Origin: Candidatus Saganbacteria bacterium
GTDB lineage: Bacteria > Margulisbacteria > WOR-1 > XYC2-FULL-46-14 > WPAF01
Assembly: GCA_016223205.1 (NCBI GenBank)
Contig: JACRPM010000010.1
Span: forward strand, 26,441 to 90,440
Direction of reading: 5' to 3'
DNA: 64,000 nucleotides
Position numbers and translations under genes: made by a program. This document shows positions 36,880-53,954 of this stretch, piece by piece. Position 1 is the first letter of the stretch. Every line of letters starts with the position of its first letter. The notes under the pieces are model-generated. The model was not told the DNA's origin and ran no database searches. It saw only the letters and a list, made by a program, of their open reading frames with translations.

Positions 36880-37573
36880 AACAGTCGTCATCATGCCCGC
36901 CTATAACGCCGAGAAGACACTGGAAAAGACCTACCGGGATATCCCCAAGGACCAGGTCTCCGAGATCATTTTGGGGGATGATTGTTCACAGGACAAAACA
37001 ATTGAAATCGCCGAAAAGTTGGGCATTCGCGTCCTTAAAACCCCGCACAACCTGGGTTACGGCGGCAACCAGAAAATGCTGTATCGGGAAGCCCTCAAGA
37101 GGGGAGCGGATGTGATCGTGATGGTGCATCCCGACTGGCAGTACGATGCCACTAAAATTCCGGAGATGGTCGCGCCCATTGCGGCCGGAGAAAAAGACGT
37201 TATGATGGGCTCGAGGGTGCTGGGCGGGGGGACGCTGGCGGGGGGCATGCCCATCTGGAAATACATCAGCAACCGCTTCCTCACCTGGTGTGAGAATATG
37301 ACTTTTCGTCTTGATCTTTCCGAATACCACACCGGCTTCCGCGCTTTTTCCCGCAAGGTATTGGAAACCATCCCTTTTGAGAAGAATTCCAACGATTTTG
37401 TCTTTGACACCGAGGTTCTGGCGGAGGCGGCCCGGAAAAAATTCAGGGCCGGGGAGATCGCAGTACCCTGCCGCTATTTTTCCGAGGCCTCGGAGATCAA
37501 TTTTGTCCGCAGTTCGGTCTACGGTCTGCAGACCTTATGGGTATGTCTTAAGTATTGGTTGAATCTCATATGA
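36872..37573 (+). CDS. Family 2 glycosyltransferase (polyprenyl-phosphate sugar transferase-like)
   Basis: VVIMPAYNAEKTL...GDDCSQDKT GT-A DxD context. 233 aa. The current GTG start lies inside the inserted DUF1016 element. Confidence 0.8.
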   Translation: MLKTVVIMPAYNAEKTLEKTYRDIPKDQVSEIILGDDCSQDKTIEIAEKLGIRVLKTPHNLGYGGNQKMLYREALKRGADVIVMVHPDWQYDATKIPEMVAPIAAGEKDVMMGSRVLGGGTLAGGMPIWKYISNRFLTWCENMTFRLDLSEYHTGFRAFSRKVLETIPFEKNSNDFVFDTEVLAEAARKKFRAGEIAVPCRYFSEASEINFVRSSVYGLQTLWVCLKYWLNLI

Positions 37574-38076
37574 AAAACCGCCGCGGATTCACCCTTATCG
37601 AAGCCGCTTCCGTGATCGTCATTCTTATGATACTGGCCGTGGGAAGCTTCGTCTACATCGGTTTTACCAACGGCATCAAGCTTGATGCCGCCGCAAACAA
37701 GCTGGCCGCCGACATCCGCTACGCCCAATCCCGCGCCATGAGCTATACCGTCTGGCACGGCGTGATCTTTAACGTTAATCCGACCAACACCTATTCGGTA
37801 TATTCGACCGACGGATCGACCGATACCGTGGTCGAAGATCCCGCCAAGCTCGCCTCCAACCTCACGGTGAATTTAAATACCGCTTATGGGGCCACCATCA
37901 ACAGCGTCAGCATCCAGGAAGGCGGGAATAAGATAGAATTTTCCCCGTTGGGCGCGCCCTGGACGGACAAGAACGGCATGCTATTAAGCTCCGAGGCCGG
38001 CGTGGTGATCGGCCTGGCCGGGCAGACCAAGACGATTACCATAACCCAGAACACCGGCAAGGTGAACGTGGAATGA
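37555..38076 (+). CDS. Type IV pilin / pseudopilin (prepilin N-terminal cleavage-methylation domain)
   Basis: RRGFTLIEAASVIVILMILAVGSF class III signal. Likely true start MKNRRG at about 37570. Confidence 0.75.
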   Translation: MVESHMKNRRGFTLIEAASVIVILMILAVGSFVYIGFTNGIKLDAAANKLAADIRYAQSRAMSYTVWHGVIFNVNPTNTYSVYSTDGSTDTVVEDPAKLASNLTVNLNTAYGATINSVSIQEGGNKIEFSPLGAPWTDKNGMLLSSEAGVVIGLAGQTKTITITQNTGKVNVE

Positions 38077-38462
38077 GAAAGACGGGATTTTCCCTGGTCG
38101 AACTGATCATTGCCGTAGTGGTGATCGGCATCGCTTTTTATGCTTTGATCTCGGTCTTTATCACGGTGGCGCCGCGCAACGTGAACGTGGAGGATATAAC
38201 CAAGGCCACCCACCTGGCCTTTGAAAAGATGGAAGAGACCACGGTCAAGCCCTTTACCAGCGTGGCCTCCGTTTCGGCCACCAGCTTCACCGGAGATTTT
38301 TCCAATTTCCAGTATCAGGTGATCATGAATTATGTGACCTCCTCCGAGCCGGATGTTTTAGCGCCCGGCGCGACCTCCTATAAAAGGGTTAAAGTCAGGA
38401 CCTGGGGCGGGCTTTCGGGAACGGTGGAGCTAGTGACTTTGGTAACAACTTATGAATTCTAG
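38073..38462 (+). CDS. Minor pilin / pseudopilin
   Basis: MRKTGFSLVELIIAVVVIGIAF prepilin leader plus hydrophobic helix. A 4-nt overlap with the preceding gene. Confidence 0.75.
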   Translation: MRKTGFSLVELIIAVVVIGIAFYALISVFITVAPRNVNVEDITKATHLAFEKMEETTVKPFTSVASVSATSFTGDFSNFQYQVIMNYVTSSEPDVLAPGATSYKRVKVRTWGGLSGTVELVTLVTTYEF

Positions 38463-38934
38463 GGGATACACACTAATAGAGCTGGTTATCGTCATCACCT
38501 TGTTGGGTTTGCTTTCTTTTATTTTCGGGGCCTTTATCACCGAGTCCATGGACGCCTGGGTGTTCGTAAAAGCCCGGGAAAACGCCTTGGGCACCTCACG
38601 GTACGCAATAGAGAGGATGGTGACCGAAATGCGGAGGATACAGAAAGCCAACATGATCATTACCTCCACCACCTCGGAGGTAAGCTTTGTGGATATTGGG
38701 GGAGGGACGGTGACCTTTAGCCAGGAGGCCACCAACTTATGGCGGAATTCTAATATTCTGGCGACCGGGTTGGTAAGCGGGAGCGGCAACGGCTTAAGGT
38801 TCTCTTACCTGGATGCCAACGGCAACCCCACCGCGACCAAACAGAATATCCGCAGTATCCGCGTGTGGCTGAAGCTCAATAAATTCGGCCAGACCATGAT
38901 ATTGGAATCGGCGGCGAGGTTGAGGAACTTATGA
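38452..38934 (+). CDS. Minor pilin / pseudopilin (PulJ/GspJ-like)
   Basis: MNSRGYTLIELVIVITLLGLLSF prepilin-type N-terminus. Confidence 0.7.
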   Translation: MNSRGYTLIELVIVITLLGLLSFIFGAFITESMDAWVFVKARENALGTSRYAIERMVTEMRRIQKANMIITSTTSEVSFVDIGGGTVTFSQEATNLWRNSNILATGLVSGSGNGLRFSYLDANGNPTATKQNIRSIRVWLKLNKFGQTMILESAARLRNL

Positions 38935-40166
38935 AGAAAAACCGGGGTTTTGCGCTGATTGTGGCGATCTTTGTGGTGGTGGTCTTTGCCGTGCTGGGGG
39001 TGGTGGCGGTCTCTTTGCTTTCGGGCGAGAGCATTATGGCCATGCGGGACCTGCACGGCATCCAGGCGCTGGAGCTGGCCGAGGCCGGGCTCAAGCACGC
39101 CCTGGCATATCAATTGTCCGGCGATGACGATTGGTCGGACAACACCGGATATTCCAAGAACCTTTCGCCGGGTTCTTTTACGATCTCCTACACTTATAAT
39201 ACTAAGAACCGGGTGACCTTGCAGGTTACCGGGGTGGTGTCGGGGGTTTCGCGCACCATCCAATCCACGGTCAAAAGGGGAGGCCTGCCGGCGGCGTTCG
39301 GTTACGGCATGTATTCCGCCAACCAAGGCGGCGACCCGCTGGTAATAGAAAATTCCGCCACCATCTTCGGGGATTTCTATTTCAAGGGCGATGTTACCAT
39401 GAAAAACAGCTCACGCTTGCTGAACGGTACCATGTACAGCGATTCCTTGACTTTGTTGAACTCGGCGACCTGCGCCTCCTGGGAGCCCGCCCCCGACGTG
39501 CCTCTGCCGACTCTCGAAACCGGCTATTACGACACCCTGCTGGCGGAGACCACCAGGTCCGCTTCTTCCTCATTAAGAATGAGCAGCGGCACCCTGGCTT
39601 TGGCGGGAACGACCCGGTATTACACCAGCATCAATCTTTCCGGCTCCGCTATCGTGACCGGGCCGGGAATGCTGGTGGCCACTACCGGCAACTTCACTTT
39701 ACAGAACAGCGCGCGATTAGGCGATAACATTATTGTGGTTGCCAAACAACAGGCCTCTTTTCAAAATTCCGCCCAGGTGGGCAACGATGTTAAGATAGTA
39801 GCCAATGATGACATCAATATAAATAATGGACAAAATTTTCTTCCCGAAGCGCTGATCTTTTCTTATGGGAATATTGATTTTGATAACACCTCATATTACT
39901 ACGGCAGTTTCATTTGTCCTAACGGCCAGGTGTCGTCGCTCAACTCCACGAAGTTTAGAGGGTTGATCTACGCGGGGACCATCGATATGCTCAATTCAAC
40001 CAACCTAATTGGGAGTATCGTGCTCCGGGAGGGCATCAGCCATTTCCGCAATAGCTCCACCGTAACTTATGATCCATCTTACTTGCCCACCGAATGGCCG
40101 CCGGGGCTCGAAGGCGGGGTTGGGGCTTCTGAAGAGGGGACTTCCGATTGGCTGGAGGTCTATTAG
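38931..40166 (+). CDS. Large minor pilin (PilX-like) with prepilin-type N-terminus and beta-helix-like repetitive C-terminal region
   Basis: MKKNRGFALIVAIFVVVVFAVLGVVAV. Repetitive NSA/NS-rich segments. Confidence 0.65.
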   Translation: MKKNRGFALIVAIFVVVVFAVLGVVAVSLLSGESIMAMRDLHGIQALELAEAGLKHALAYQLSGDDDWSDNTGYSKNLSPGSFTISYTYNTKNRVTLQVTGVVSGVSRTIQSTVKRGGLPAAFGYGMYSANQGGDPLVIENSATIFGDFYFKGDVTMKNSSRLLNGTMYSDSLTLLNSATCASWEPAPDVPLPTLETGYYDTLLAETTRSASSSLRMSSGTLALAGTTRYYTSINLSGSAIVTGPGMLVATTGNFTLQNSARLGDNIIVVAKQQASFQNSAQVGNDVKIVANDDININNGQNFLPEALIFSYGNIDFDNTSYYYGSFICPNGQVSSLNSTKFRGLIYAGTIDMLNSTNLIGSIVLREGISHFRNSSTVTYDPSYLPTEWPPGLEGGVGASEEGTSDWLEVY

Positions 40167-40378
40167 ATCGGATTCCCTTTTATGATGGGAATTATATATT
40201 CCCTTATATTAGAGGTCAACTTTTCGGCCGCGGCTTGGATCTTAAGCAGCCGGTCTTTTTGAACGTGGCTCAATTCCCCGGAAAGGCCTTCGAGCAGGAT
40301 GCTCACCTGGCCGAGAATGATGGTGGTCGGCTCCAGCAGTTTGTGCTGTAACACCCTCTCATCTATTGGCTGATCCAC
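40163..40378 (-). CDS. Small ORF, possible HisKA-like dimerisation fragment (remnant histidine kinase?)
   Basis: ILGQVSILLEGLSGELSHVQKDRLLKIQAAAEKL resembles a His-phosphotransfer helix. 71 aa. Overlaps the response-regulator gene by 16 nt. No catalytic domain follows. Confidence 0.2.
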   Translation of the reverse strand: MDQPIDERVLQHKLLEPTTIILGQVSILLEGLSGELSHVQKDRLLKIQAAAEKLTSNIREYIIPIIKGNPI

Positions 40379-40725
40379 TTCTTGATCCTTTGCATAAGAT
40401 CCGCGGGATCGAAGGGCTTGGCCACGTAATCGTTCATGCCCACCCCTTCACTGCGTTTGTGATTGGCCTCATCCTTAAGGACGGTCACCGCGATCACCGG
40501 GATATTGTTCCCGTCTTTCCTGATCTTCCGGCAAAATTCAAATCCATCCATACCGGGCAGCATCAAGTCCAGCAGGATCAGATCGGGCTTCTCGTGGGTG
40601 AGTTTGGTTAAGCCCTGCTCCGCGTCCGGGGCGGATATGGCCTGGTAACCATGCGCTTCGACCAGATCTTCGAGCAAGGTTACTATCTCCGGAGCATCAT
40701 CAATGATCAGGACTTTCTTTTTCAT
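40363..40725 (-). CDS. Single-domain response regulator (CheY-like receiver)
   Basis: KVLIIDDAPE...DLILLDLMLPGMDGFEF...K. 120 aa. Confidence 0.85.
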   Translation of the reverse strand: MKKKVLIIDDAPEIVTLLEDLVEAHGYQAISAPDAEQGLTKLTHEKPDLILLDLMLPGMDGFEFCRKIRKDGNNIPVIAVTVLKDEANHKRSEGVGMNDYVAKPFDPADLMQRIKKWISQ

Positions 40726-42191
40726 GTTTTCTTTTCCCCCTCAACTACATTATACCCTTCACCGGCGGTCTCGCCGATCACGTTCAGGTCGTGGCGGATG
40801 GCGTCGGTGATCACCCAATCGCAGACCTTAAGTATCATGCGCGGCACACCCTGGCTCATCTTATAAATATTCTCGACCGATTCCGGGGTGAACGGCTTAA
40901 GGCCGGTTCCTCCCGAGTTCTCGATCCTCTTTTGCATCATCTCTTCGGTCTCCTTAACGGAGAGATGCTCCAAGGTCACTTCCAAAATAATGCGGTCGTA
41001 AAATGGAGCGCTCACGCACTTGATCTTGTCCGAGGTCTCCAGTAATCCTGCCAGCACAAAATTTACCCCATTTAGGTCGCCCAGGGTGCGGAGCGGCCGC
41101 TCGAATTCGGCCGAGAACTCATGGGCTTCGTCGAGAAACAATAGGATGTTCTTCTGGGTGGTGCTGGCCAGGGATTCCAGATCGTAGATGGTGAACCGGC
41201 GGTCCTTGGGCTTTTTCAATTTGAGCGATGCGGCCAAGAATTCCAGCAAGTCGTCGAAATTATCGGTGGGGCGGGGGATATAGATAGTATGATAATCGTC
41301 TTTGAGCTTGTCGGCCAGCCACTTGAGCAGGGTGGTCTTGCCTACGCCCTTATTGCCGCAAACCAGGACATGTCCGCTTTTAAGGCAGATCTTCTCAAGG
41401 ATATTCTGCACCTGGGTCTGGTAACCGGTAAAAAGATTGGGTAGGATATCCAGGGTAAAGGGATTGCGCTTCCAGCCGAACTTGGCGTACCACTTGCGCT
41501 GGGCCGCGGTGACCCCGGTCCAGGGCTTGAGCCGCGCGCCGCACTTGGCGCAAAATTCGGCCGCTCCGGGATTGGACCACTTGCATTCGGTGCAGATCTG
41601 CAGTTTTTTCTTTTCCAGATAATCCCGGATATTGGTGTAAGTTATGCGGATAAGCAGAAGAAGGGTCAGGACCGATACCACTCCCATCCACAAGGATATT
41701 TGCTGGATCAGATTTGCGGTAACGGCGGTTGCGGCGGGTGGTTTCTGCGGCCTAAAAAGCGGCGCCCTGGGCTCCTCTTTTTGGGGTTCTTCCTTTTTGG
41801 GCTTGGGCAGGGTAGGAGGCAGAACCTGTCTTAAGCTGGGGAAGGCGGGTTTTTCCTGTACTTTGGGTGGAGGCGGGGGAGGAGCGGCCGGTCCCATCTC
41901 CTTTTTGATCTCATTTTGCAGTTCCATGGCCCGGGTGTGGTTGGGATCGAGCTTCAGCGCCTCGCCCAGGTCCTTAAGGGCGCCTTCGTTATCGCCCAGG
42001 AAGTATTTATTTACCGCGCGGTCGTAGTGGTCGTCTGCGCTTTGGGCGTATCCGGGAGCTTGAAAGCTAATCATCAAAAAACAAACAACAAAAAACAAAC
42101 AAATACCAATATCCATTATCCAATATTTAAATTGAGATTTGGAATTTTGAAATTGTTTGTTATTTGTCATTTGTAATTTATTATTTTTCAT
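40722..42191 (-). CDS. Membrane-anchored TPR / Pro-rich linker / TM / zinc-ribbon / AAA+ ATPase (ExeA/GspA-like)
   Basis: N-terminal TM helix plus TPR (ALKDLGEALKLDPNHTRAMEL). PPPPPPP linker. Second TM helix. CTECK...CAKCG zinc ribbon. Walker A CGNKGVGKTTLLKW and Walker B LLFLDEAHE. Confidence 0.6.
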   Translation of the reverse strand: MKNNKLQMTNNKQFQNSKSQFKYWIMDIGICLFFVVCFLMISFQAPGYAQSADDHYDRAVNKYFLGDNEGALKDLGEALKLDPNHTRAMELQNEIKKEMGPAAPPPPPPKVQEKPAFPSLRQVLPPTLPKPKKEEPQKEEPRAPLFRPQKPPAATAVTANLIQQISLWMGVVSVLTLLLLIRITYTNIRDYLEKKKLQICTECKWSNPGAAEFCAKCGARLKPWTGVTAAQRKWYAKFGWKRNPFTLDILPNLFTGYQTQVQNILEKICLKSGHVLVCGNKGVGKTTLLKWLADKLKDDYHTIYIPRPTDNFDDLLEFLAASLKLKKPKDRRFTIYDLESLASTTQKNILLFLDEAHEFSAEFERPLRTLGDLNGVNFVLAGLLETSDKIKCVSAPFYDRIILEVTLEHLSVKETEEMMQKRIENSGGTGLKPFTPESVENIYKMSQGVPRMILKVCDWVITDAIRHDLNVIGETAGEGYNVVEGEKKT

Positions 42192-43645
42192 TACTTCTTC
42201 TCCAATTTCATGATCAATTGCAGTTTTTTCTGCAGGGCCTGGGCCTGTTTGTTTTTGGGATCCTTGGAGAGCGAGGCATCCACCTGCTCCAGGGCTTCCT
42301 TGTACTTGCCGGTCACCACCAGCTTCAGGGCTTCGCCCAAAAAGCTGCGGGCCTGCTCCTGGCTCTGCTCGATAAGCTGGCTCTCCATTTTGGTCTGGGC
42401 CTCGCTTTGGAGCCGCAGGGCCTCACGGTTGGTGGGCTCGATCCTCAAGGCCTTGCTGAATTCCGCCAGGGCCTCCAAATACTTGCCCTGGGATAAAAAT
42501 CCCTTGCCGGAAGACATTATATCATTGATATCGCGTTTGATCTCAACCGCCAGTTCTGCGAAGACCTTCTCAAAGGCCTCTCTTTCGAGCTCGGCCTGGG
42601 CTTTTTTCAGGAGTATCAGGCCTTCTTCGTTCTTGGGGTCGAGGGTGTTAACCTTTTCAAATCTTATAACCGCATCGGAATATTTTTTCTTATCAAGATA
42701 GGCCTTGCCCAGCGCCAGGTTATCCAAGATGAGCTTCTTGGACTTATCTTCGGCGCCGAAAAGCAGGCTGATGCTCACCTGGTGCGCGGCTCCCAGATCG
42801 GCGTGGCCCAGGTAAGCGTAGTCGAAGGCGAAGAGATTGGCATACAGGCCCAGCCCGGCGCGCAAAGTCCCGCCCGCCGAACCCACTCTTATGGCCAAGA
42901 AATTGCGGATCAAATATTCGGCCCCCAAATTGATCCGCAGGCCTTCGGGGAAAGACACCAGATCGGAATTAAGATTGATATTTTCATCGAAAAGCCGGGT
43001 GGCGAAGGCCGCCCCCAGGCGGTAAGAAGCGGGGAGAGGCGTGTTTTCGGTGACGAATTTTAAGGGGGAGCCCAGATTAAGCGCCGAAACCCCCAGGCAA
43101 AACTGGGAATTGACGCGGTAAGCCAAGCCGCCGTCCAGGGCGAAGGTGGAAGCGGAGCTCCCTTCCAATTTTTCCGAGATCGATTTTACCCCCAAACCGA
43201 ACGAGAGGTTGGGGGTTATCCTTCTGCCCAGGGAAAGATTGATACTGCTGTGAGCGGTGTTAAAGGTGGAGGTTACCGCTCCGGTATTATCGTATCCTTG
43301 TATATCTCCTGAAGATAAGCCCGAATAGCCGATCCCCAGCACCCCGAAATTAACCGGGTACGCGGCTCCCACGATCATCTGGCTGGCGCCGACGAAGTGG
43401 CTGTTGTACAGGCTCAAGACCTCGGGGAAATTAAGCTGGGCCAGGCCCGCCGGGTTATAATACATGGCTGAAATGTCATCCGCTTGCGCTACATAGGCCT
43501 CGCCCATCCCCAAAGGTCTGGCTCCACCGCCTAAGCGGAGAAAATCAGCGCCGGAACTGGAACCAACGCCCGCCTCCGATGGAATAACCAATGAACAAGC
43601 TACAAAAGACAAACAAATAATAAATATCAATTTCCAATTTCTCAT
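42191..43645 (-). CDS. FadL/OmpP1-family (PorV-like) outer-membrane beta-barrel with C-terminal TPR repeats
   Basis: Signal peptide. Motif GGGARPLGMGEAYVAQADDISAMYYNPAGLA. C-terminal 150 aa TPR-like (YLDKKKYSDAVIRFEKVNTLDPKNEEG...). Start overlaps the stop of the upstream cargo gene by 4 nt. Confidence 0.55.
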   Translation of the reverse strand: MRNWKLIFIICLSFVACSLVIPSEAGVGSSSGADFLRLGGGARPLGMGEAYVAQADDISAMYYNPAGLAQLNFPEVLSLYNSHFVGASQMIVGAAYPVNFGVLGIGYSGLSSGDIQGYDNTGAVTSTFNTAHSSINLSLGRRITPNLSFGLGVKSISEKLEGSSASTFALDGGLAYRVNSQFCLGVSALNLGSPLKFVTENTPLPASYRLGAAFATRLFDENINLNSDLVSFPEGLRINLGAEYLIRNFLAIRVGSAGGTLRAGLGLYANLFAFDYAYLGHADLGAAHQVSISLLFGAEDKSKKLILDNLALGKAYLDKKKYSDAVIRFEKVNTLDPKNEEGLILLKKAQAELEREAFEKVFAELAVEIKRDINDIMSSGKGFLSQGKYLEALAEFSKALRIEPTNREALRLQSEAQTKMESQLIEQSQEQARSFLGEALKLVVTGKYKEALEQVDASLSKDPKNKQAQALQKKLQLIMKLEKK

Positions 43646-46600
43646 CTAATTATCACTAATTTGCCTAATTTTTGATCGGTGGCGCTCTTAATAGCATAAA
43701 AATACAAGCCACTCACCACATTTTCTCCCGCGTCGTTTTTGACGTCCCACGCGTTCTGCCCGTCGCCGTCGGATTCATTGATGGTCTTGACCGCATCTCC
43801 GCTCACGGTGAAGATCTTGATGGTGCACTGGGAAGCCAGGTTGGTGAAAGTTATGGTGGTGTGGCCCAGGCCGGAATTGGGTTTAAAAGGATTGGGATAA
43901 GCGTAAGCGATCGACAGGTCGTTGGCCGGCGTGGCCATGGCGGTGAAAGTCGAAAAGCTTTTAACCGGGGCGGATACCAGCTTGGTGGAGGTGTCTACCA
44001 CGCAGCCTGGGACTCTAACCCAGAGTTGACTGGTTTCATTTAAACGATAATTGAGCAGGGCCGAGACCCTGGCCGGCGGAGTCACGTTATCAACGTAGCC
44101 GTCGTTGTTGTCGTCGCGATAGGGGAGGTAAATGGTCGCGTCGCTTTGGAGTTGATCGGTTATGCGAGTTCCCGAAGTATTGTAAACCACGAATTCCCTC
44201 ACATCGCCGGAGATGGGATGCCGGAAAGTGTTGCCTTCTCCCGCGATCTTGGTGGTGGCCGCGGTGATATTTGCCGGGGTTACCACGATGGGATCGCTTT
44301 CCGGATTGGTGCTGATCCTTACATAAAAATCCTGGTTATAGGCGTTGGCCGGGATCACCACTTTGGTCTTGCCGTCGTCGGCGATAACCGTTAAAGAGGC
44401 GGTATGATCCAATATTGTCTCAAATGATGCGCTGAAAGTCGTAGCCAGATGGTCGCCCACCAGATCGGCGGCTTCGGTGGAAACCGTAGCCTGATAAGTA
44501 TAGTTCTTGGTCAAGTTGGAAGTGGGAGTGAAGGTAACGGTGGTTCCCGACCAGGAATACGTCCCATCGATCTGGGTATTGAGGGTATTGCCGTCTTTGT
44601 CCCGGATAGCTTTAAGCCGCAGGGCATTTTCCACCGACGACTGGTTCATAGTTTCGGAGAAGGTGACCCTAACGGTTTCCGATGTGGCCACGCCCACTGC
44701 CAGGTCGGCAGGGGAGACGCTCGTTATAGTTGGTGTTGCCTCGGCGGTTATATTAAAAGTATTGGAGGTAGCCGAAGTTAAGCCGGTAGCGGAGGCGACC
44801 AGGGTGTAGCCGTTCCCGGCATTGTTGATGCTTAGGTTGGAAAAAGAAGCAACGCCGGATGATACGGTCTTGCTGGTGGTGCCGGAAAGTGTTCCGCTCC
44901 CTGGATTGGTGCCGATGGCAAGCGAAACGCTGGTGGTGTTATCGCTGGCCAGCAAATTGCCGTATTGATCTTGCACCTCAACACTCACCGAAGGCGACAT
45001 CGTCACTCCCGCTTCGGTGGTTGAGGGCTGAACGCTGTACGCGACCTTGCTGGCGGGGGCCGAGGCCCAGGCGGCATATCTATAAGTGATGCCGTTAGCA
45101 TTGGTCGCTAATCCTGCTGCGGCGCCCGAGCCGATCTGAAAACCATCGGATTGCAGGGCCTGGATAAGGTCGGAAGCATTGGCGGTATTGGTAAAATATT
45201 GTGCGTTATCGCCCGAAAGCGAGGAGTTCCGGAAGACGGCGTTGGTATTAGCCGTTCCTTCGGGTCTTTTTATCAATAATAATCCGGGAATAAAGCCCAC
45301 GCCGGTGATGTTGCGGTTATCGGTCGCATTTCCCACATAAGTGCTTTCTTTGAATTGGTCGGTTGTGGCTTTAAATGCGAAATAGTGGTAAAGATTGGCT
45401 GCGGTATTGGCCTGCGCGTTGGTCCCGACTTGAAAGCCGGTGGTTTCGAGGGCCTGAATTACATCCGCCGTGTCAGCAGTGACGGAGAAGTAAGCGGTAT
45501 TATCGCCTGCGATCGAAGCGGTGCGGAAAACACCTAAGCTGGCGCCGTCCCTCTTTATCGCCACAATGTCTGGGGTAAAGTCCAGGGCAGGGATTGAGCG
45601 ATTGTCGCCGACCCCGACACCGGTGCTCGTGCCGGTATAAGAGCCCACCACAAAGTTAGTAGAGCCCGAATTGCCGAAAGCTGTCCAGCGGTAAGTGATA
45701 CCGACGGTATTGACCGCAGCATTAGCTCCTATATTAAAACCAGTGCCGGTCAAAGATGTTATCCCGTCCGAAAAATTAGCGGCGGCATTGGCCAGATAGG
45801 CGGTGGAATCAGGCGTCATCTTGGAGGTTGCGAATACTCCGTAGCCCGCGGCGGTATCGGATTTCACGATCACCAGGTCCGGTCGGAAGCCCACCGAGGT
45901 GATCGACATGCTGGTGCCGTTGCCCAAATAAGATCCACTGGACATAGTGAAAGTGTTGGTAGGCGCAGTAGAAGTAACACCCCGAAAAGCCGCAAAATAA
46001 TAAGTGCTGGCGGCGGCATTTACCCGGGCATTGGTCCCGACTTGGAATCCGGCGGCCTCCAAAGTTTGGATGTGATCGACGGCGTTAGCGGTGGCAGTGA
46101 AGATCTGGCTCTCGTCACCGTAATTCTGGTTGCTGCGCAAAACCGCGGCACTGGCGGCGGCGGATTGCTTGACGAACACGAAATCCGGCTTAAAGGCGGT
46201 CTTGCTGATGGAGCGGTTATCCGTCCCGTCGCCCGTATAGCTTTCAACCGACATGCTTTCGGACGTCTTGAAGGCGACATAATAGTAAGTTGCACCGGTA
46301 GAATTTACTTCTGCATTGGCGCCTACCTGGAATCCATCCGCCTGCAAGGCCTGGATGCGGTCTGCGGCAGGAGCAGTAGCTGAAAAATAATGGCTGTTAT
46401 CCGCTCCCATGGAAGAGGTGTACCAGACCCCCAGGTAAGCCCCGTCCCGCTTGGTCCAAACCAAGTTGGGCTGGAAGCCGACCCCAGTAATATTGCGGTC
46501 ATCACTGCCATTGCCGGTATAAGAACCGATTTTTAGATTAACCCCCGTGCTGCTGCGGAACGCGATCCAGACATAGCGCGTATTGCTGACCGAATTGACA

Positions 46601-46899
46601 TCCGCTCCGGTGCCCAGGGAAAAGCCGTCAGAATCAAGCGAAGTTACCAGTCCCGAAGCATTGGCGGCGGCATTCTCAAAATAAGCGGTGGAATCGCCCG
46701 TCATGGAGGAAGAGCGCCACACCGCGCGCCCGGTAGCAGTGTCGGCCTTGATGATCACCAGGTCGGGCTGGAATCCCACCCCCGTGATCGAGCGCGAAAC
46801 GCCCGAACCCACATAATATCCGGTTTGCATTTGGAAGGCGAGGGCACAACTGCCTAATAGTAAGAGAAAAATCGCGGCCCAAAAAGCTGTCTTCTTCAT
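43642..46899 (-). CDS. Secreted 1085-aa protein with 7 tandem ~95-aa repeats, Big-like Ig domains and T9SS-type C-terminal sorting domain
   Basis: Signal peptide MKKTAFWAAIFLLLLGSCALA. Repeat consensus GSYTGNG..NR.I.GVGFQPDLV.IK....G.V.R.S.M.GD...F...A...D.I..L...GFQVG.NA.VN....Y...AF. C-terminal AYAYPNPFKPNSG..TITF..L...CTIKIFTVSGD.V.T.......G.N.W.W......G..V.SGLYFYAIKSA.DQ..GKLVIIR, which matches the Por_Secre_tail pattern. Confidence 0.75.
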   Translation of the reverse strand: MKKTAFWAAIFLLLLGSCALAFQMQTGYYVGSGVSRSITGVGFQPDLVIIKADTATGRAVWRSSSMTGDSTAYFENAAANASGLVTSLDSDGFSLGTGADVNSVSNTRYVWIAFRSSTGVNLKIGSYTGNGSDDRNITGVGFQPNLVWTKRDGAYLGVWYTSSMGADNSHYFSATAPAADRIQALQADGFQVGANAEVNSTGATYYYVAFKTSESMSVESYTGDGTDNRSISKTAFKPDFVFVKQSAAASAAVLRSNQNYGDESQIFTATANAVDHIQTLEAAGFQVGTNARVNAAASTYYFAAFRGVTSTAPTNTFTMSSGSYLGNGTSMSITSVGFRPDLVIVKSDTAAGYGVFATSKMTPDSTAYLANAAANFSDGITSLTGTGFNIGANAAVNTVGITYRWTAFGNSGSTNFVVGSYTGTSTGVGVGDNRSIPALDFTPDIVAIKRDGASLGVFRTASIAGDNTAYFSVTADTADVIQALETTGFQVGTNAQANTAANLYHYFAFKATTDQFKESTYVGNATDNRNITGVGFIPGLLLIKRPEGTANTNAVFRNSSLSGDNAQYFTNTANASDLIQALQSDGFQIGSGAAAGLATNANGITYRYAAWASAPASKVAYSVQPSTTEAGVTMSPSVSVEVQDQYGNLLASDNTTSVSLAIGTNPGSGTLSGTTSKTVSSGVASFSNLSINNAGNGYTLVASATGLTSATSNTFNITAEATPTITSVSPADLAVGVATSETVRVTFSETMNQSSVENALRLKAIRDKDGNTLNTQIDGTYSWSGTTVTFTPTSNLTKNYTYQATVSTEAADLVGDHLATTFSASFETILDHTASLTVIADDGKTKVVIPANAYNQDFYVRISTNPESDPIVVTPANITAATTKIAGEGNTFRHPISGDVREFVVYNTSGTRITDQLQSDATIYLPYRDDNNDGYVDNVTPPARVSALLNYRLNETSQLWVRVPGCVVDTSTKLVSAPVKSFSTFTAMATPANDLSIAYAYPNPFKPNSGLGHTTITFTNLASQCTIKIFTVSGDAVKTINESDGDGQNAWDVKNDAGENVVSGLYFYAIKSATDQKLGKLVIIR

Positions 46900-46908
46900 T
46901 CAAGGGGT

Positions 46909-46938
46909 ATTATATAGAATAGATATAATGTAAGTCAA
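46909..46938 (-). promoter_or_regulatory. Consensus sigma70 promoter TTGACT-N18-TATAAT (minus strand) giving a near-leaderless transcript for the CTD-cargo operon
   Basis: + strand AGTCAA at 46933-38 and ATTATA at 46909-14. The ATG at 46899-97 lies about 10 nt downstream of the -10 element. Confidence 0.45.
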
Positions 46939-46955: not shown

Positions 46956-47137
46956 AGCAAACAGTGTGCTAAGACGGAACCTGCGACTAAACGTCGCGGT
47001 TCCTTAAATCTATTGATTTTAATCAGGAAACCGCGAAGTTCATTCGCGGGTTTCCTGATTTCTCATGTCATTTTTTCTGTTAACCACTGCAAGGAAAAAT
47101 AATTAATTATCGTTTACTATTTGGCACACTGTTTGCT
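46956..47137. repeat. Structured intergenic element: 14-nt long-range inverted repeat AGCAAACAGTGTGC/GCACACTGTTTGCT enclosing two GC-clamped hairpins (46976-47003 and 47024-47057)
   Basis: Hairpins GGAACCTGCGAC-TAAAC-GTCGCGGTTCC and CAGGAAACCGCGAA-GTTCA-TTCGCGGGTTTCCTG. Lies downstream of the OmpM-like gene and upstream of the cargo-operon promoter. Probably a terminator/insulator or a MITE-like element. Confidence 0.4.
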
Positions 47138-47182: not shown

Positions 47183-48538
47183 TTAGAAAACTATTCCGAT
47201 TTTAGCGCCGAAAAGTCCGGAAGATTTCGGCACACTAATGGCTAGGGCTGAATCTTTGGAACTCACTCCCGAGGGAACCTGGTAATTGCGATAGAAACCG
47301 TAGCCGCTGATATTATCGGTTAGGTCGTAGGATAACCCGAATTCGGAGGTCAAAGTGGTGCCGGGATATGCTTCGCCAAAGGTCAGGTCGCCATTGGCTA
47401 CCACGTCGGATCTGATCTGCGTGCGAATGCGGGGGAACAATAGCTGGGTCAAGATAAAACCGGCGTCGACCGTGCCGTCCAAAACATATTTATCGAACTG
47501 ATTCAACTCCAACAGCTTAAAGCGGGCGTAAGCGGGGCGATAAGCGCTCCCCACTTTATGGATGGTTATGGCCAGATCGGTGTCCGGCAGGTCTATTTTA
47601 AATTTACCTCGAACATACTGGCTGTGATAGCTGGATAAATTACCGACACCAAAGAGGAGCTCGGCCGAGACCTCTTTTGAATGATCATAACCGGCCGCGA
47701 TCTCGCCCCGGGCGTCATGCTCGTTGATAAACCCCAGCAAGCTGGGACGAGCAGAAAACCTAAACTTACCCAAGCGATAAGAGACCGAAAGGGAAGTTTC
47801 GGATAGGGTGGCTTCTCCGGATAAAGTATTGGCCAACACCGTGTAAGCCAGATCAAGGTCCAGGTTGTTCCATCTGGTCGAGGTCGAAAGGCGCGGGTAT
47901 TTCATACGGAAAACGGTCCCGTCATCGGAATATGAGATCGGATCGCGGTGCAGGATATCTCCCGCGCCAAACGAGACCGACAATCCTCGCGTCCGCCCCT
48001 CAAAATCGATCTGCGCCGGGTCGGTGTACAGGGTGTCCAGGTTGATCTTTAAAGTATCGGTGTAATTGAATTCCTTAAGCAGAGAAACCTTCAGCCGATG
48101 GTCGATGAGCGGGCCGTGAAATGCCCGGTCTTCATACTGCGCTCTGATGCGGTCGGTGTAATTTCCCGATAATTTGAACCCCTCCGGATGGTCCAGCTGA
48201 TATTTTGCCGTGTTCAGCTCGGTCTTAAGCTCCGCCAGGATTTTTTCCGTCCGTGCTTTTTCCGTGGATTTTTCAGACAATTTGGAGAGCAGGGCGGCAG
48301 TCTCATAGCGGGTAAGATTTTTGTCGCCCCGGAAGGTGCCGTCGGGGTAGCCGGAAGTCACTCCCTGTTTTACCAGATCGTAAACCGCCGGAGCGGCCCA
48401 ATGGTCGGCCGGAACGTCCCCAAACTTTATGTCCGCATTGGCGGCGCTACAGATACTTGATAATATCAGCAGCGATATCAAAAGCCGCATGCGGTTTTCT
48501 GGCCCTTTCAATGTTCTTCTGGATCTTTTTATATTCAT
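47183..48538 (-). CDS. OmpM/Slp-like outer-membrane protein: N-terminal SLH domain, coiled-coil, C-terminal beta-barrel
   Basis: SLH FGDVPADHWAAPAVYDLVKQGVTSGYPDGTFRGDKNLTRYETAALLSKL. Heptad region. C-terminal barrel ending ...FGAKIGIVF. Likely true start MRLLISLLILSSICSAANA at about 48490. Confidence 0.65.
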   Translation of the reverse strand: MNIKRSRRTLKGPENRMRLLISLLILSSICSAANADIKFGDVPADHWAAPAVYDLVKQGVTSGYPDGTFRGDKNLTRYETAALLSKLSEKSTEKARTEKILAELKTELNTAKYQLDHPEGFKLSGNYTDRIRAQYEDRAFHGPLIDHRLKVSLLKEFNYTDTLKINLDTLYTDPAQIDFEGRTRGLSVSFGAGDILHRDPISYSDDGTVFRMKYPRLSTSTRWNNLDLDLAYTVLANTLSGEATLSETSLSVSYRLGKFRFSARPSLLGFINEHDARGEIAAGYDHSKEVSAELLFGVGNLSSYHSQYVRGKFKIDLPDTDLAITIHKVGSAYRPAYARFKLLELNQFDKYVLDGTVDAGFILTQLLFPRIRTQIRSDVVANGDLTFGEAYPGTTLTSEFGLSYDLTDNISGYGFYRNYQVPSGVSSKDSALAISVPKSSGLFGAKIGIVF

Positions 48539-49544
48539 TGGGATCTTGCAGGTCCCGGATTATCTCCACCACTTTTTCGGGGTCCTGGGTGACCTGGCCG
48601 ACCTTTGCCGCCTCCACAAAACGCACATTGCCCTCCTCCTGGCCGGGCAGCCAGGAGGTGATGATGATGGGCAGGTTCATGGCCAGGGCTTCGGCGATCG
48701 ATCCCGGCCCGGCCTTGGTGATGATGAGATCCGATTGGGACATGATCTGCGGCACCTGGTCGGTAAAACCGTAGACCTTGAGGGGGAAGCCGAAATTCGG
48801 GGCTTCGGCCTTTAGCTTTTCTTCCAGTTTTTGGTTTCTTCCGCAGATCACGATCAGCTGGACTTTTAGTTTGGCCAGGTCGATGGCCTGGATTATCTCA
48901 TACATGCCGCCCGCGCCTTCGCCTCCGCCCATCAAGAGCACCGTGAACTTATGCGGGGTCTTCTTTTTTTGCGGGCCTTTGGCAAAGCGGGGGTCGATCG
49001 GCATGCCTTCCACTTTTATCTTTTTTACCGGCATACCGTACTTAACAGCCAGCTTTTTGGCTTCTTCCGTAGCTACCAGGCAAAGGTCGACCTTGGGGGT
49101 GATCCAGGCCCGGTGCAGGGTCACCGGGTCCATCACCACCACGATAAAGGGGATCTTAAGGCCGCTGTCGGCAATAGCCTGCGCGGTCAAATGGTTCACC
49201 AGGGGATGGACCGAAACGATCGCATCGGGCTTGGTCTTTTTTATTAACTTGGTCAGGTCTTTGAGGATAAAGGGTCGGGAGATCGCCTCCAGCTGTTCTA
49301 ATTTCTTTTCGTCATCCAGAAAGTAATAAAGCATTCCCCACATCCGGGGAGAGAATTTTATCACCGGCGCGTAAAGCCGGGCGAAGATGTTCAAGAACCC
49401 GCTGCACTCGGCAAAGACATCCACCATTTCCTGCTCGAATTTACCGGGCTTGAGACCTTCGACCGCATTCATCAGGGCCTTGGCCCCGGAGCGGTGCCCC
49501 CCGCCGGTATCCGAGAACAGGTAGAGGATCTTCTTTTTCATCAA
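48447..49544 (-). CDS. GT28-family diacylglycerol glycosyltransferase (MGDG synthase / UgtP-like)
   Basis: N-terminal LYLFSDTGGGHRSGAKAL, characteristic of MGDG/processive DAG glucosyltransferases. 365 aa. Confidence 0.7.
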   Translation of the reverse strand: MMKKKILYLFSDTGGGHRSGAKALMNAVEGLKPGKFEQEMVDVFAECSGFLNIFARLYAPVIKFSPRMWGMLYYFLDDEKKLEQLEAISRPFILKDLTKLIKKTKPDAIVSVHPLVNHLTAQAIADSGLKIPFIVVVMDPVTLHRAWITPKVDLCLVATEEAKKLAVKYGMPVKKIKVEGMPIDPRFAKGPQKKKTPHKFTVLLMGGGEGAGGMYEIIQAIDLAKLKVQLIVICGRNQKLEEKLKAEAPNFGFPLKVYGFTDQVPQIMSQSDLIITKAGPGSIAEALAMNLPIIITSWLPGQEEGNVRFVEAAKVGQVTQDPEKVVEIIRDLQDPNEYKKIQKNIERARKPHAAFDIAADIIKYL

Positions 49545-50455
49545 GTGGTGGCCTTAACGGTGAGCTCGAGGCCCCGGGCCATGTCGACGGTCGGCTGCCA
49601 GCCGAGTTCCTTCTTGATCTTTTCGGCGTTCAGGACACTGCGGAAGAGTTCCCCGGCGCGGGGTGGGGCATAGACCACGGACCCCTTGAATTTCATGATC
49701 TTTTTTAAGTGGTCGAACAATTCGTTGACCGAAGTGCCGATGCCGGTGCCTACATTATATATGCCGTTGTCACCCTTGGTTAAAGCGGTTAGGTTGGCCT
49801 GGCATACGTCCTTAACATAAACATAATCGCGCAATTGCTTGCCATCGCCGAAGATGGTGGGATTTTCTCCCTTGGCTAGCTTTCCAATAAAAATAGCGAT
49901 CACTCCGGCCTCGCCCAGGGGATCCTGCCGCGGGCCGTAGACGTTGCCGTAGCGCAGGACGGTGAACTTTATCCCGTAGGTGACATGATAGAAATACAGG
50001 TACATCTCGGTTGCTTTCTTGGTGACGGCATAGGGGGAAATGGGCTCGAGTTTATGGTCCTCATCGGCGCCTTCCTTTTCGGGGATCTCGCCGTAAAGCG
50101 CGCCGCCGGTCGAAGAAAATACTATCTTTTTAACTTTAGCTTTTACCGCGGCGTCCAAGAGATTTATCGCGCCCAAAACGTTCACCTCTTCGGTAAAAGC
50201 CGGGTCCGCCACGGATTTCCTTACATCTATCTGGGCGGCCAGGTGATTTATGATCTCGGGCTTAAAATCCAACAGGATATCGGCGACCTTTTTATCCCGG
50301 ATATCGATCTGATAGAACTTCGCTATGGGGTTGAGATTTTCTTTTTTCCCGGTTATAAGATTGTCGAGGATGGCGACCTCATGTCCCGCCTCGATATAAG
50401 CATCCACGATGTTACTGCCGATGAATCCCGCGCCGCCGGTCACTAGAATTTTCAA
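49541..50455 (-). CDS. NAD-dependent sugar epimerase/dehydratase (GalE/WcaG-like SDR)
   Basis: MKILVTGGAGFIGSN Rossmann motif. YxxxK catalytic context (YAVTKKATE). 304 aa. A 4-nt overlap with the MGDG synthase gene. Confidence 0.85.
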   Translation of the reverse strand: MKILVTGGAGFIGSNIVDAYIEAGHEVAILDNLITGKKENLNPIAKFYQIDIRDKKVADILLDFKPEIINHLAAQIDVRKSVADPAFTEEVNVLGAINLLDAAVKAKVKKIVFSSTGGALYGEIPEKEGADEDHKLEPISPYAVTKKATEMYLYFYHVTYGIKFTVLRYGNVYGPRQDPLGEAGVIAIFIGKLAKGENPTIFGDGKQLRDYVYVKDVCQANLTALTKGDNGIYNVGTGIGTSVNELFDHLKKIMKFKGSVVYAPPRAGELFRSVLNAEKIKKELGWQPTVDMARGLELTVKATT

Positions 50456-52499: not shown

Positions 52500-53954
52500 G
52501 TTAAAACGATATTTTAATATCTCAGTATCGCTCTCATCGACCTCGATCAGGTGATAAGGAAAGAAAACGTGGGTGTCGGATTCGCGGATGGCCAGTTCCT
52601 GGAGCTTGACCTCCAGGTTGATGTCCGCGGGGATCACCTTTAGCAGGTTTTTGGATCCACCGCTGTTCATGGGCTGGGCCCAGTTCTCGATTATCCGGCC
52701 GATGGTCTCGCGCTTTCCCGCCAGCTCCTCGCCGAATTCGGTCAAGATCGCGAGCAGCGGCTTGCCCAGGCGGGCCTCTTTTAAAAGATTGATCGAGCCC
52801 AGCATGCCCAGGTGCTGATTCAATAATTTTCCTTCTTCCTTTTCCACCGAGCCGATATTTAAAAGCAGGACCTGGCACTCGGAATATTCCCGGCCCAATC
52901 CTTCCACAAAGCGCGAATCCCCCGTGATGCCGATGTGGAGCCGTTCACCGTTCTTCAAGACCAGGTTGGTATCGAGCACCAAGCCCACGGAAGATTCCTG
53001 ATTGGTCCAGCGCTCGGTGTGGTAGGCGGGCTTCACATGGATATGAAAGCCGTATTTTTCCATCAGGGACTGGTTCTCGATCTCCGCCACCCGGTTGCCG
53101 GGCACCAGCAGTTTGAAATTTATCTCCTTGTTGCCGAACAGGTCGGTGGCGGAAAGCAGGCCGTGGAATTTCAAAAGCACTCCGGACGAGCCGAAAATAT
53201 CCAGGACTTTGCTCTTTTTTTCCTGGTTGTGATCGTTGTATTTGGCCAAAAGCGAAAGTATCCCCTCCACCGATTCGGTGTGGTCGTCGTGGTCGTGGGT
53301 GATGATGATGGCGTCGATATCGGCGATGCCCAGCCCCAGCCCGCGAAAGATATCGAAAAAATCATAGCCGGGATCGATGGCGATGCCCTTTACTTCCCCT
53401 CTCCCGTTCCGCAAGGTTAAAAAGTACCCTCCGCCCTGGGAGAGCCCGTGGGAGAATAGGGGAGAGGCGGAGTTCCACTTGTGGATGGTGCGCAGGACGT
53501 TGGCTCCCATCTTGTATTCCACCTGGCGGGGAGCGTTCAGCTCCCTGATCAGTTGGGCCTGGTTCTTTTTTATGATTTCCCGCGTGGGGAAAATGGTCTC
53601 GTCCATGTAGTTAATAGCACGGGTGGCGGAGGAGCCGAGGTTCTTCATATGCAGGTCGTACTGGCGCGCCAGCCGGAAATCCTCGTAAGCCTCGCGGAAG
53701 CGCCCCTGCAGAAAGCGACTGATGCCGCGATTGTAGGCCGGCAGCCCCACATTGCCATGCTTTTTCTGCATCAGGCGGAAAAGCGCGTCGAATACCGCCT
53801 CGGCTTCTTTATAAAGATTTCGGTCTATTAAAGCGTGGCCGAGCTGTTCCCACTTCGCCGGATCGTTCTCATTGAGGGATTTGAGAAGTTCTGGAAAGCT
53901 CTTAAAGCCGCCAAGTAAGTCCTGCAATTTGTGTCCTATTAAAATTTCCGCCAA
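52494..53954 (-). CDS. MBL-fold metallo-hydrolase with N-terminal TPR-like region
   Basis: Metal-binding IIITHDHDDHTESVEG (HxHxDH variant). 486 aa. Confidence 0.7.
   Translation of the reverse strand: MAEILIGHKLQDLLGGFKSFPELLKSLNENDPAKWEQLGHALIDRNLYKEAEAVFDALFRLMQKKHGNVGLPAYNRGISRFLQGRFREAYEDFRLARQYDLHMKNLGSSATRAINYMDETIFPTREIIKKNQAQLIRELNAPRQVEYKMGANVLRTIHKWNSASPLFSHGLSQGGGYFLTLRNGRGEVKGIAIDPGYDFFDIFRGLGLGIADIDAIIITHDHDDHTESVEGILSLLAKYNDHNQEKKSKVLDIFGSSGVLLKFHGLLSATDLFGNKEINFKLLVPGNRVAEIENQSLMEKYGFHIHVKPAYHTERWTNQESSVGLVLDTNLVLKNGERLHIGITGDSRFVEGLGREYSECQVLLLNIGSVEKEEGKLLNQHLGMLGSINLLKEARLGKPLLAILTEFGEELAGKRETIGRIIENWAQPMNSGGSKNLLKVIPADINLEVKLQELAIRESDTHVFFPYHLIEVDESDTEILKYRFNG

Follow-up and report, generated by a model that had tools for sequence, protein, structure and literature searches.

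A conserved CTD protein–PorV-like barrel–ExeA-like ATPase operon in Candidatus Saganbacteria and its possible role in surface display

The stretch of DNA analysed here, called the window throughout, comprises 64,000 nucleotides (nt) of contig JACRPM010000010.1 from Candidatus Saganbacteria. Our subject is a cluster of five consecutive open reading frames (ORFs) on its minus strand, genes A to E, which encode in this order a secreted protein with a C-terminal domain (CTD) like those of type IX secretion systems (T9SS), an outer-membrane β-barrel with a tetratricopeptide repeat (TPR) tail, a membrane-spanning ATPase, a CheY-like receiver and a small histidine kinase-like protein (Table 1). A sequence-only reading had proposed a translationally coupled operon of five minus-strand genes running from 46899 to 40163, and the ORFs lie exactly there; on two public contigs from this organism, independent annotation yields the same five genes. 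The host is assigned to Candidatus Saganbacteria (Margulisiibacteriota) by exact or 100%-identical database entries of that name, and the related loci described below come from metagenome-assembled genomes of Margulisiibacteriota. The source organisms are uncultivated, and their lineage is a sister of Cyanobacteria.

The five genes are packed without gaps. Read from the sequence, the A/B and C/D junctions each overlap by 4 nt at an ATGA, B/C overlaps by 1 nt at a TAATG, and D/E overlaps by 16 nt, with E starting at a GTG; the proposed 4–16 nt overlap of all junctions thus holds for every junction except B/C. Shine-Dalgarno-like purine-rich runs lie 5' of C, D and E and none lies 5' of B, therefore translation of B would depend on its ATGA junction with A. 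A strong promoter had been predicted upstream of A, and the site matches the sigma-70 consensus at 11 of 12 positions. Such a site is not above chance by itself in 9 kb (9 found versus 7.7 expected), but from its -35 hexamer through the ATG of A, 46 of 48 nt are identical in L049, the corresponding locus of a 75%-identical relative, although the remaining intergenic DNA has diverged and coding dS (synonymous divergence) exceeds 1.2. This 48-nt stretch, one of the few that are conserved between genes in that relative, is a good phylogenetic footprint; the predicted promoter stands, as does the translational coupling. As the -10 hexamer ends only 9 nt before the ATG of A, where a Shine-Dalgarno sequence is absent, the mRNA of this secreted 1085-aa protein is probably leaderless or nearly so, starting 1–3 nt before the ATG. 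A terminator scan within the operon gave counts at or below chance, and an Rfam scan of 36–50 kb of the window found nothing. The ratio of nonsynonymous to synonymous substitution (dN/dS) between the window genes and their L049 orthologues is 0.03–0.13 across all five genes. The genes are co-transcribable and under purifying selection, and synteny in 14 modules with equally tight junctions (see below) puts the cluster beyond chance; synteny and dN/dS together rule out both chance adjacency and pseudogenes.

Protein A starts with a Sec-type signal peptide, and the same start is kept in L049; the GenBank start lies 23 aa further in and would delete the signal peptide. We also considered whether A might be a lipoprotein ('LGSC'), which was ruled out because the Cys is not conserved among orthologues. 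The repeats that follow match DUF7483 in Pfam (1e-39, 5 stretches), the sixth being read by eye. They form a variable 'payload': the N-terminal part of the cargo changes from module to module, in several orthologous modules it is unrelated to that of A, and the repeats are absent from the cargo of L003, L013 and L021, while Big_5 and the CTD are kept. Residues 1001–1083 narrowly pass two type-A CTD models, TIGR04183 (28.3 bits, cut-off 23) and PF18962 (27.4 bits, cut-off 27), and score narrowly below the cut-offs of FlgD_ig and CHU_C; 16 CTDs were included in the CTD alignment. The dN/dS of A is 0.13, and tblastn with its CTD detected no further copy in the window. The window encodes another giant surface protein, a 4008-aa ORF at 6859-18885 (+) with beta-helix, DUF1565, NosD, LIC10774-like and choice-of-anchor Q matches.

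Protein B had been described as a FadL-like barrel with TPR. The barrel and the TPR tail stand, and the family can be stated more precisely as PorV/PorQ: B passes the NCBIfam subfamily model NF033709 (PorV_fam) at 120 bits against a cut-off of 90, and misses both Toluene_X (PF03349; 24.3 bits against 29.7) and the equivalog models for PorV (41.7 against 250), PorQ (75.6 against 220) and PorV2 (47.8 against 325). An AlphaFold2 model built with 43 homologues (predicted local distance difference test score, pLDDT, 85.8) comprises an N-terminal hatch, a barrel at residues 75–295 and a helical tail at residues 298–483. Its top Foldseek match is PorV in the SprA-PorV-RemA-CTD complex (8gl6_F; E 1.5e-15, TM-score 0.63 on the target), followed by FadL at 4.9e-10 and by FadL and TodX at ~1e-9. 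In the homologue alignment, hatch residues N64, P65 and L68 are invariant and A66 nearly so. The TPR tail weakly matches the type IV pilus outer-membrane models PilW and Amuc_1098, as well as PrsT (26 against a cut-off of 312), and one homologue is named TadD. Precomputed UPF0164 matches exist for several B homologues; B of the window itself has no UPF0164 match at E <= 0.01. Two further PorV/PorQ-family-like barrels are encoded in the window at 19014-20654 (+) and 53902-55182 (-), scoring 65 and 49 bits and thus below the cut-off. The first of these carries two C-terminal SLH domains at the position of the TPR tail of B, which supports a periplasmic location of such tails; this genome pairs one barrel type with different periplasmic anchoring tails.

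Protein C, for which GenBank gives a start that makes it 39 aa shorter, combines a TPR head, a transmembrane segment, a zinc ribbon and an ATPase of the AAA_22 family (62.7 bits against a cut-off of 27, E 5.5e-17). Its ATPase part contains 'WYAKFGWKRNPFTLD', the Walker A motif GNKGVGKTT and the Walker B motif LDEAHE. All 24 homologues of C share one layout of signal peptide, single TPR, Pro-rich spacer, transmembrane helix, zinc ribbon, 'WYAKFGWKxNPFTLD' and AAA_22, and GxxGxGKT, DEAHE and the residues K285, D354, E355, R400 and R451, including the candidate arginine-finger and sensor residues, are invariant among them. The positive charges after the transmembrane helix and the ATP needed by the ATPase suggest that the C-terminal part is cytoplasmic and the TPR head periplasmic. 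Homologues of C are named ExeA or GspA in JGI annotations. The best NCBIfam match of C is TIGR03015 (XrtA/PEP-CTERM system ATPase), which is missed by far (72.1 bits against a cut-off of 324.5); AAA_16 and nSTAND models match weakly, and no PG_binding match was obtained. The full-length architecture is rare: 1.84 billion representatives contain ~20 clusters of it at 50% identity.

Protein D is a complete single-domain receiver (Response_reg, 107.6 bits against a cut-off of 30.2, E 4.9e-31) in which, as read from the sequence, the receiver residues D9, D10, D53, T81 and K103 are intact, and its dN/dS is 0.03. For protein E the sole Pfam match is HisKA, below the cut-off (E 0.05, 14 bits against 26.9). 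A three-sequence E profile matched the dimerisation and histidine phosphotransfer (DHp) domain of a histidine kinase in the Protein Data Bank (PDB; 7n0e, E 0.0027), aligning the invariant His12 of E to the phospho-acceptor His. The E family has six members of 62–72 aa, forming five further clusters besides the window E, two of them with precomputed HisKA matches. E and its five relatives are devoid of a catalytic ATP-binding domain and end just after the DHp hairpin. E is limited to one Saganbacteria subclade, where it always immediately follows D; tblastn and phmmer detected no E homologues in the loci from the genome scan with the C family, and they were found only in closer relatives fetched later. 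E had been called a HisKA-like remnant. The likeness to HisKA stands, while the orthologues of conserved size, the DHp profile match with its invariant His12 and a dN/dS of 0.06 argue that E is a functional DHp-only gene and not a remnant. With these refinements, every domain call of the sequence-only reading was reproduced, and the architecture it had put forward, of cargo, outer-membrane barrel, membrane-spanning ExeA-like ATPase and receiver, holds.

Table 1. Coordinates of the genes, domains and neighbouring features discussed in the text. Positions refer to the window unless a locus is named.
Feature	Position	Strand	Remarks
Gene A	43642..46899	-	1085 aa; cargo or surface protein; GenBank 'Ig-like domain-containing protein'
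Gene B	42191..43645	-	484 aa; outer-membrane barrel + TPR tail; GenBank 'PorV/PorQ family protein'
Gene C	40722..42191	-	489 aa; bitopic TPR/zinc-ribbon/AAA+ ATPase; GenBank 'AAA family ATPase'
Gene D	40363..40725	-	120 aa; stand-alone CheY-like receiver; GenBank 'response regulator'
Gene E	40163..40378	-	71 aa; HisKA/DHp-only protein; GenBank 'hypothetical protein'
Sigma-70-type promoter of A	46909..46938	-	TTGACT-18-TATAAT; 11/12 consensus match
A, Sec-type signal peptide	46831..46899	-	residues 1-23, MKKTAFWAAIFLLLLGSCALAFQ; read from sequence; start kept in L049
A, DUF7483-type repeats	44980..46830	-	residues ~24-640; six repeats, ~100 aa each
A, Big_5 Ig-like domain	44416..44739	-	residues 721-828; kept in all clade-1 cargo proteins
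A, CTD, T9SS type-A/FlgD-Ig-like	43645..43899	-	residues 1001-1085
B, hatch + FadL/PorV-type β-barrel	42761..43555	-	residues 31-295; invariant NPA motif in hatch
B, all-helical TPR extension	42197..42754	-	residues 298-483; presumably periplasmic
C, N-terminal TPR unit	41895..42038	-	residues 52-99; after signal peptide; presumably periplasmic
C, Pro-rich disordered spacer	41727..41894	-	residues 100-155; pLDDT < 50 for residues 102-150
C, long helix with transmembrane segment	41607..41726	-	residues 156-195; Lys/Arg-rich on C-terminal side
C, zinc ribbon CxxC...CxxC	41526..41594	-	residues 200-222; C200, C203, C214, C217 invariant; DZR and Zn_Ribbon_1 both weak
C, ExeA/GspA-like AAA_22 P-loop ATPase + lid domain	40782..41507	-	residues 229-470
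Four minor (pseudo)pilin genes	37555..40166	+	173, 129, 160, 411 aa; convergent on module; N_methyl, GspH, PilX_N matches
S-layer homology (SLH) porin/glycosyltransferase neighbourhood	window 47183-50455; L049 1693-4974; L023 1776-6587; L022 11361-15407		
Small CTD-only lipobox proteins	L003 8133-8477; L021 8140-8481; L051 2143-2511; L055 7235-7558; L056 8185-8529		
Archaeal C-like loci	L017 68-3553; L018 3532-7002; L019 7542-11212		L017 and L018 Altiarchaeota; L019 labelled Methanobacteriota

To survey how widely the module recurs, genomes were scanned with the C family, all ORFs of the resulting loci were compared with the window proteins by phmmer, and four contigs were looked up in addition. 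Fourteen modules, designated clade 1, have a cargo protein with Big_5 and CTD, an optional small CTD-only protein, often with a lipobox, a barrel-TPR protein and the ATPase, with junctions between -16 and +15 nt. In 10 of these 14, D comes after C and in the same direction; in L005 a receiver lies downstream of C on the opposite strand, and L023 lacks the barrel and has an NtrC-type regulator after C. On one contig two complete cargo-barrel-ATPase sets stand in tandem, so that each cargo has its own barrel and ATPase. In clade 2, consisting of seven loci and L016 (with the barrel downstream), barrel and ATPase are kept; here the barrel has no TPR tail, and a separate secreted protein of 230–270 aa that ends in a similar single TPR is encoded between barrel and ATPase. 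We also compared the β-sandwich of this 230–270-aa protein with the 16 CTDs profile to profile, and its homology to the CTD received no support (probability 0.5%). In 22 of 23 informative modules no more than 1.3 kb separates barrel and ATPase, which makes B-C the conserved core; clade 1 is defined by A-B-C, with D as a frequent and E as a local component. The five-gene co-occurrence on which the operon proposal depended is therefore borne out for A-B-C, usually with D, across Margulisiibacteriota, and not for the complete set, as some modules lack D and most lack E.

Two further features recur at these loci. CTD-only proteins of 107–122 aa with lipobox signal peptides (LLSGC, LLAGC, LLTGC, IIGC) are encoded between cargo and barrel in many modules, not in the window, and could be placeholders or regulators for the barrel. 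The module also repeatedly adjoins an SLH-domain porin-like gene and a gene for a glycosyltransferase resembling monogalactosyldiacylglycerol (MGDG) synthase, accompanied, except in L022, by a NAD-dependent epimerase gene; these surroundings are a recurring outer-membrane-biogenesis neighbourhood.

In some genomes the module is embedded in type IV filament genes, a link that adds to the account given by the sequence-only reading. In the window this link consists of minor pilin genes only, with no secretin, and in L049 a minor pilin is encoded 2.5 kb downstream of the module. L003 has the same four minor-pilin genes directly upstream of A and co-directional with it, and L056 has at least the last two in the same arrangement (the locus ends there). 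In both, D is followed after 33 nt by genes for a PilM-PilN fusion, PilO-like and PilP-like proteins and a secretin, so that the order minor pilins, A, small CTD protein, B, C, D, PilMN, PilO-like, PilP-like, secretin is co-directional throughout with gaps of 1–33 nt. A strict prepilin regular expression proved too strict; with a relaxed version and phmmer, pilins near modules were found only in the window, L001, L003, L049 and L056. No clade-2 locus has pilus genes within 10 kb, and no GspB was identified. For these pilin- and secretin-type neighbours, NCBIfam does not tell type IV pili (T4P) from type II secretion systems (T2SS).

Partial counterparts of the module occur in other phyla. A Zixibacteria genome encodes a 1257-aa FlgD_ig-tailed protein whose gene overlaps that of a PorV-TPR barrel by 4 nt, and SpoIIE, STAS and GGDEF signalling genes come after the pair. 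In the Elusimicrobia locus L054 (3157-9038), a PorV-like barrel adjoins a divergent FliG_C-MotA/ExbB-MotB-MotB-TPR operon, and a 1567-aa Por_Secre_tail protein is encoded 7 kb off; here a proton-driven system may correspond to the ATPase-coupled module. In archaea, homologues of C that cover its zinc-ribbon/AAA_22 part, at 41–44% identity and with an N-terminal transmembrane helix, come directly after a secreted Ig-like (CarboxypepD_reg) protein of 670–745 aa, and DPANN archaea have more distant ATPase-only relatives of C beside housekeeping genes. The literature search found no paper joining Margulisbacteria or Saganbacteria with type IX secretion, none joining PorV with ExeA in the sense of this module, and no description of the five-gene unit, whose genes are annotated individually in GenBank; the earlier statement that the combination is not described as a unit agrees with this. 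The novelty lies in the phylum and the combination, the parts being known from CTD/PorV docking in the T9SS and from ExeA-type ATPases.

The closest known system for A and B is the T9SS. A ends in a type-A CTD above the cut-offs of both models, the barrel encoded next to it scores above the PorV/PorQ subfamily cut-off, and among solved structures it is best matched by CTD-bound PorV. The pairing of one barrel with one CTD recalls PorQ-PorZ, and the small CTD protein and two-component link in the modules recall PorA-PorV-PorXY of Porphyromonas gingivalis. In this species the CTD protein PorA binds PorV, a binder of CTDs, gets to the surface without the T9SS translocon and feeds the PorXY-SigP two-component system (PMC7712824). 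In contrast to the T9SS, the genes of which are stated to be absent outside the FCB phyla (Bacteroidota and relatives; PMC11285876), the module resides in Margulisiibacteriota, B falls far below the PorV and PorQ equivalog cut-offs and bears a TPR tail, and the partner is an ATPase instead of the proton-driven PorLM motor. Neither the ORFs scanned in the 64-kb window (best 25 of 49 families in one scan) nor the module-flanking genes included SprA/Sov, PorK/L/M/N or PorU. A barrel of FadL/PorV type followed by a presumptively periplasmic helical TPR extension is also found in the UPF0164 proteins of Treponema pallidum, FadL-like outer-membrane proteins in which this extension is unexplained; unlike B, they have no known partner and are not reported beside a CTD cargo or an ATPase (PMC8407342).

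For C, the most similar proteins are ExeA and GspA of the T2SS, likewise AAA_22 P-loop ATPases tethered to the inner membrane with a periplasmic protein-binding part, and some genomes have C in linkage with pseudopilin and secretin genes. C shares with the ExeA/GspA family the motif 'FG(L/W)..(N)PF' before the P-loop, and the MSHA pilus offers a similar pattern in MshM/MshN, an ExeA-like ATPase paired with a TPR protein. C differs from ExeA in its reversed order, with the periplasmic part N-terminal and the ATPase C-terminal (in ExeA an N-terminal cytoplasmic ATPase precedes the transmembrane segment and a C-terminal periplasmic domain), in its TPR and Pro-rich spacer in place of the peptidoglycan-binding domain, in its inserted zinc ribbon, in that no GspB was identified with it, and in occurring mostly not beside a secretin and paired with a PorV-like barrel. 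PEP-CTERM/exosortase systems also combine C-terminal protein sorting with an ExeA-like ATPase (TIGR03015) and a TPR protein (PrsT), whereas in the module both scores are far below their cut-offs, there is no exosortase or PEP-CTERM motif, and the sorting domain is a β-sandwich CTD. The D-E pair resembles the Spo0F-Spo0B/ChpT phosphorelays in setting a single-domain receiver gene beside a gene for a His-bearing DHp four-helix-bundle protein without ATP-binding domain, and differs in that E is a bare DHp of 62–72 aa with no acidic residue after the His and with no linked kinase or terminal regulator.

On this basis we tentatively propose that the module may well be a conserved, dedicated surface-display system of Margulisiibacteriota, the mechanism of which we infer from the architecture of its proteins. 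A would be exported by Sec, and its CTD would dock on its own barrel B and be held at the cell surface, by analogy with PorQ, which holds PorZ, and with PorV, which binds PorA. The periplasmic TPR tail of B would bind the TPR head of C and so form a bridge from the outer to the inner membrane, and ATP turnover by C might license or drive insertion or assembly of the A-B complex, in analogy with the part of ExeA/GspA in secretin assembly. Phosphorylated D could tune C, and E may be a His-phosphotransfer or dimerisation partner of D, fed by an unlinked kinase. Because the module sits within such a gene cluster in some genomes, outer-membrane passage of A is proposed to occur probably via a secretin machine of the type IV filament class (T2SS/T4P-like). 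The 'export/assembly plus signalling' function suggested by the sequence-only reading, with any movement or assembly of A by B or C, is likewise putative. It is tempting to extend it to an SprA-independent, ATP-coupled form of CTD sorting and anchoring in a diderm outside the FCB group, a type II/type IX hybrid with secretin passage, a private PorV-like barrel, a TPR-wired ExeA-like ATPase and phosphorelay control; this extension is speculative and we consider it doubtful.

Several observations weigh against a dedicated display system. D is absent from two modules (L024, L030) and from all clade-2 modules, and E from most. The large neighbours in clade-2 modules have no detectable type-A CTD, therefore the CTD link is not universal, and 8 of 12 clade-1 loci (near-identical relatives counted once) are without pilus or secretin genes within 10 kb. 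Fold and sequence searches with C against the PDB return TPR and generic AAA+ proteins only (RuvB, ORC/Cdc6, MuB, TnsC; initiator clade), which gives no information on its function. In a spirochaete and in FCPU426, members of the PorV/PorQ subfamily stand alone among housekeeping genes, with no adjacent cargo or ATPase. The subfamily is thus broad, and with the two further PorV-family-like barrels in the window, membership is no proof of CTD binding. We had also considered that every PorV-family barrel outside the FCB group might mark a cargo module, and dropped this idea in view of the spirochaete and FCPU426 barrels.

The same loci can be read in other ways. The module could serve a type IV filament machine as an accessory, with the secretin, and not A, as the chief client of B and C; C would then correspond to an assembly ATPase, fused MshN/MshM- or GspA-like, B to a TPR outer-membrane protein of pilotin type, and A to an adhesin in the position of PilY1 or a secreted substrate. 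The co-directional array of L003 and L056, which runs from minor pilins through the module to the secretin, speaks for this, as do the minor pilins retained within 0–3 kb in the window and L049, the ExeA/GspA names of C homologues together with the requirement for ExeA with ExeB in secretin assembly (PMC4098917), and the PilW, Amuc_1098 and TadD likenesses of the B tail. We nevertheless consider this unlikely: most modules, including all of clade 2, have no pilus genes within 10 kb, the tandem duplication that repeats cargo, barrel and ATPase together agrees better with a partner private to each cargo than with a factor for secretin assembly in general, the best fold match of B is PorV and not a pilotin, C is reversed relative to ExeA and has a TPR where ExeA has its peptidoglycan-binding domain, and the neighbouring genes themselves are undecided between T4P and T2SS in NCBIfam. 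Somewhat less probable again is trans-envelope signalling of a kind comparable to cell-surface signalling, in which A and B would sense at the surface, TPR contacts would pass the signal to C as a STAND-like NTPase switch, and the output would run via D and E. Here the absence of D from L024, L030 and clade 2 and the confinement of E to one subclade have to be set against the receiver that follows C in most clade-1 modules, the NtrC-type regulator of L023 and the conserved DHp partner; the Zixibacteria pair next to signalling genes, the weak AAA_16 and nSTAND matches of C and the PorA-PorV route to PorXY-SigP (PMC7712824) would also fit. D has no output domain, however, the module includes no kinase or DNA-binding protein, the best family matches of C are ExeA/PEP-CTERM-type assembly ATPases, and the first position of the cargo gene together with translational coupling suggests stoichiometric assembly.

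That B is merely an ordinary FadL-type channel for hydrophobic small molecules, adjacent to its neighbours through a shared envelope neighbourhood, is very improbable. The weak Toluene_X match, FadL and TodX as next-best folds, the conserved NPA hatch motif, the stand-alone PorV-like barrels of other phyla and the SLH porins and lipid glycosyltransferases nearby are what such a channel would lead one to expect; yet Toluene_X stays below its cut-off while PorV_fam is above its own, the E-value for PorV is five orders of magnitude better than that for FadL, synteny and the overlaps at the junctions persist at saturated dS, and barrel-TPR and ATPase-TPR are paired in 22 of 23 modules.

The surroundings of the operon show further features. 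At 40163-40166 the last minor-pilin gene (+) and E (-) have overlapping stop codons, so that there is no intergenic terminator between them; inside the 3' end of E there are a plus-strand hairpin with a T-run at 40187-40203 and a minus-strand TTGACC-17-TATAAT match at 40219..40191. Two strong hairpins enclosed by a perfect 13-nt inverted repeat (GCAAACAGTGTGC) lie at 46957-47136, in the interval from the SLH-porin gene to the promoter of A, and the 243-nt intergenic stretch upstream of A has a predicted RNA fold of -90 kcal/mol (z = -7.8 versus shuffles). This repeat occurs nowhere else in the window and is not kept in L049; it might serve the porin gene as a terminator or insulator, or be a small inserted element. 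Elsewhere the window is ordinary chromosome that encodes DnaB, AlaRS, GuaA, PheST and MutS, outer-membrane proteins with SLH domains and, at 29725-31151 (-) between guaA and IMPDH-like genes, an AbiE toxin-antitoxin pair (AbiEii/AbiEi, type IV).

A sister lineage of Cyanobacteria thus maintains, under purifying selection, a conserved and translationally coupled CTD/PorV-family pair, although the T9SS is stated to be confined to the FCB group. If the proposed display system is real, CTD/PorV docking would be an older and more portable means of surface anchoring than the T9SS itself, and a hybrid type II/type IX system, if it exists, would be a possible evolutionary relative of the T9SS attachment step. 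DHp-only E beside CheY-like D would represent a compact, putative phosphorelay element, and the poorly understood ExeA/MshM class of ATPases would gain a tractable context. The periplasmic TPR tails of FadL/PorV-like barrels, a feature shared by vaccine-candidate outer-membrane proteins of Treponema pallidum, would then have a concrete partner.

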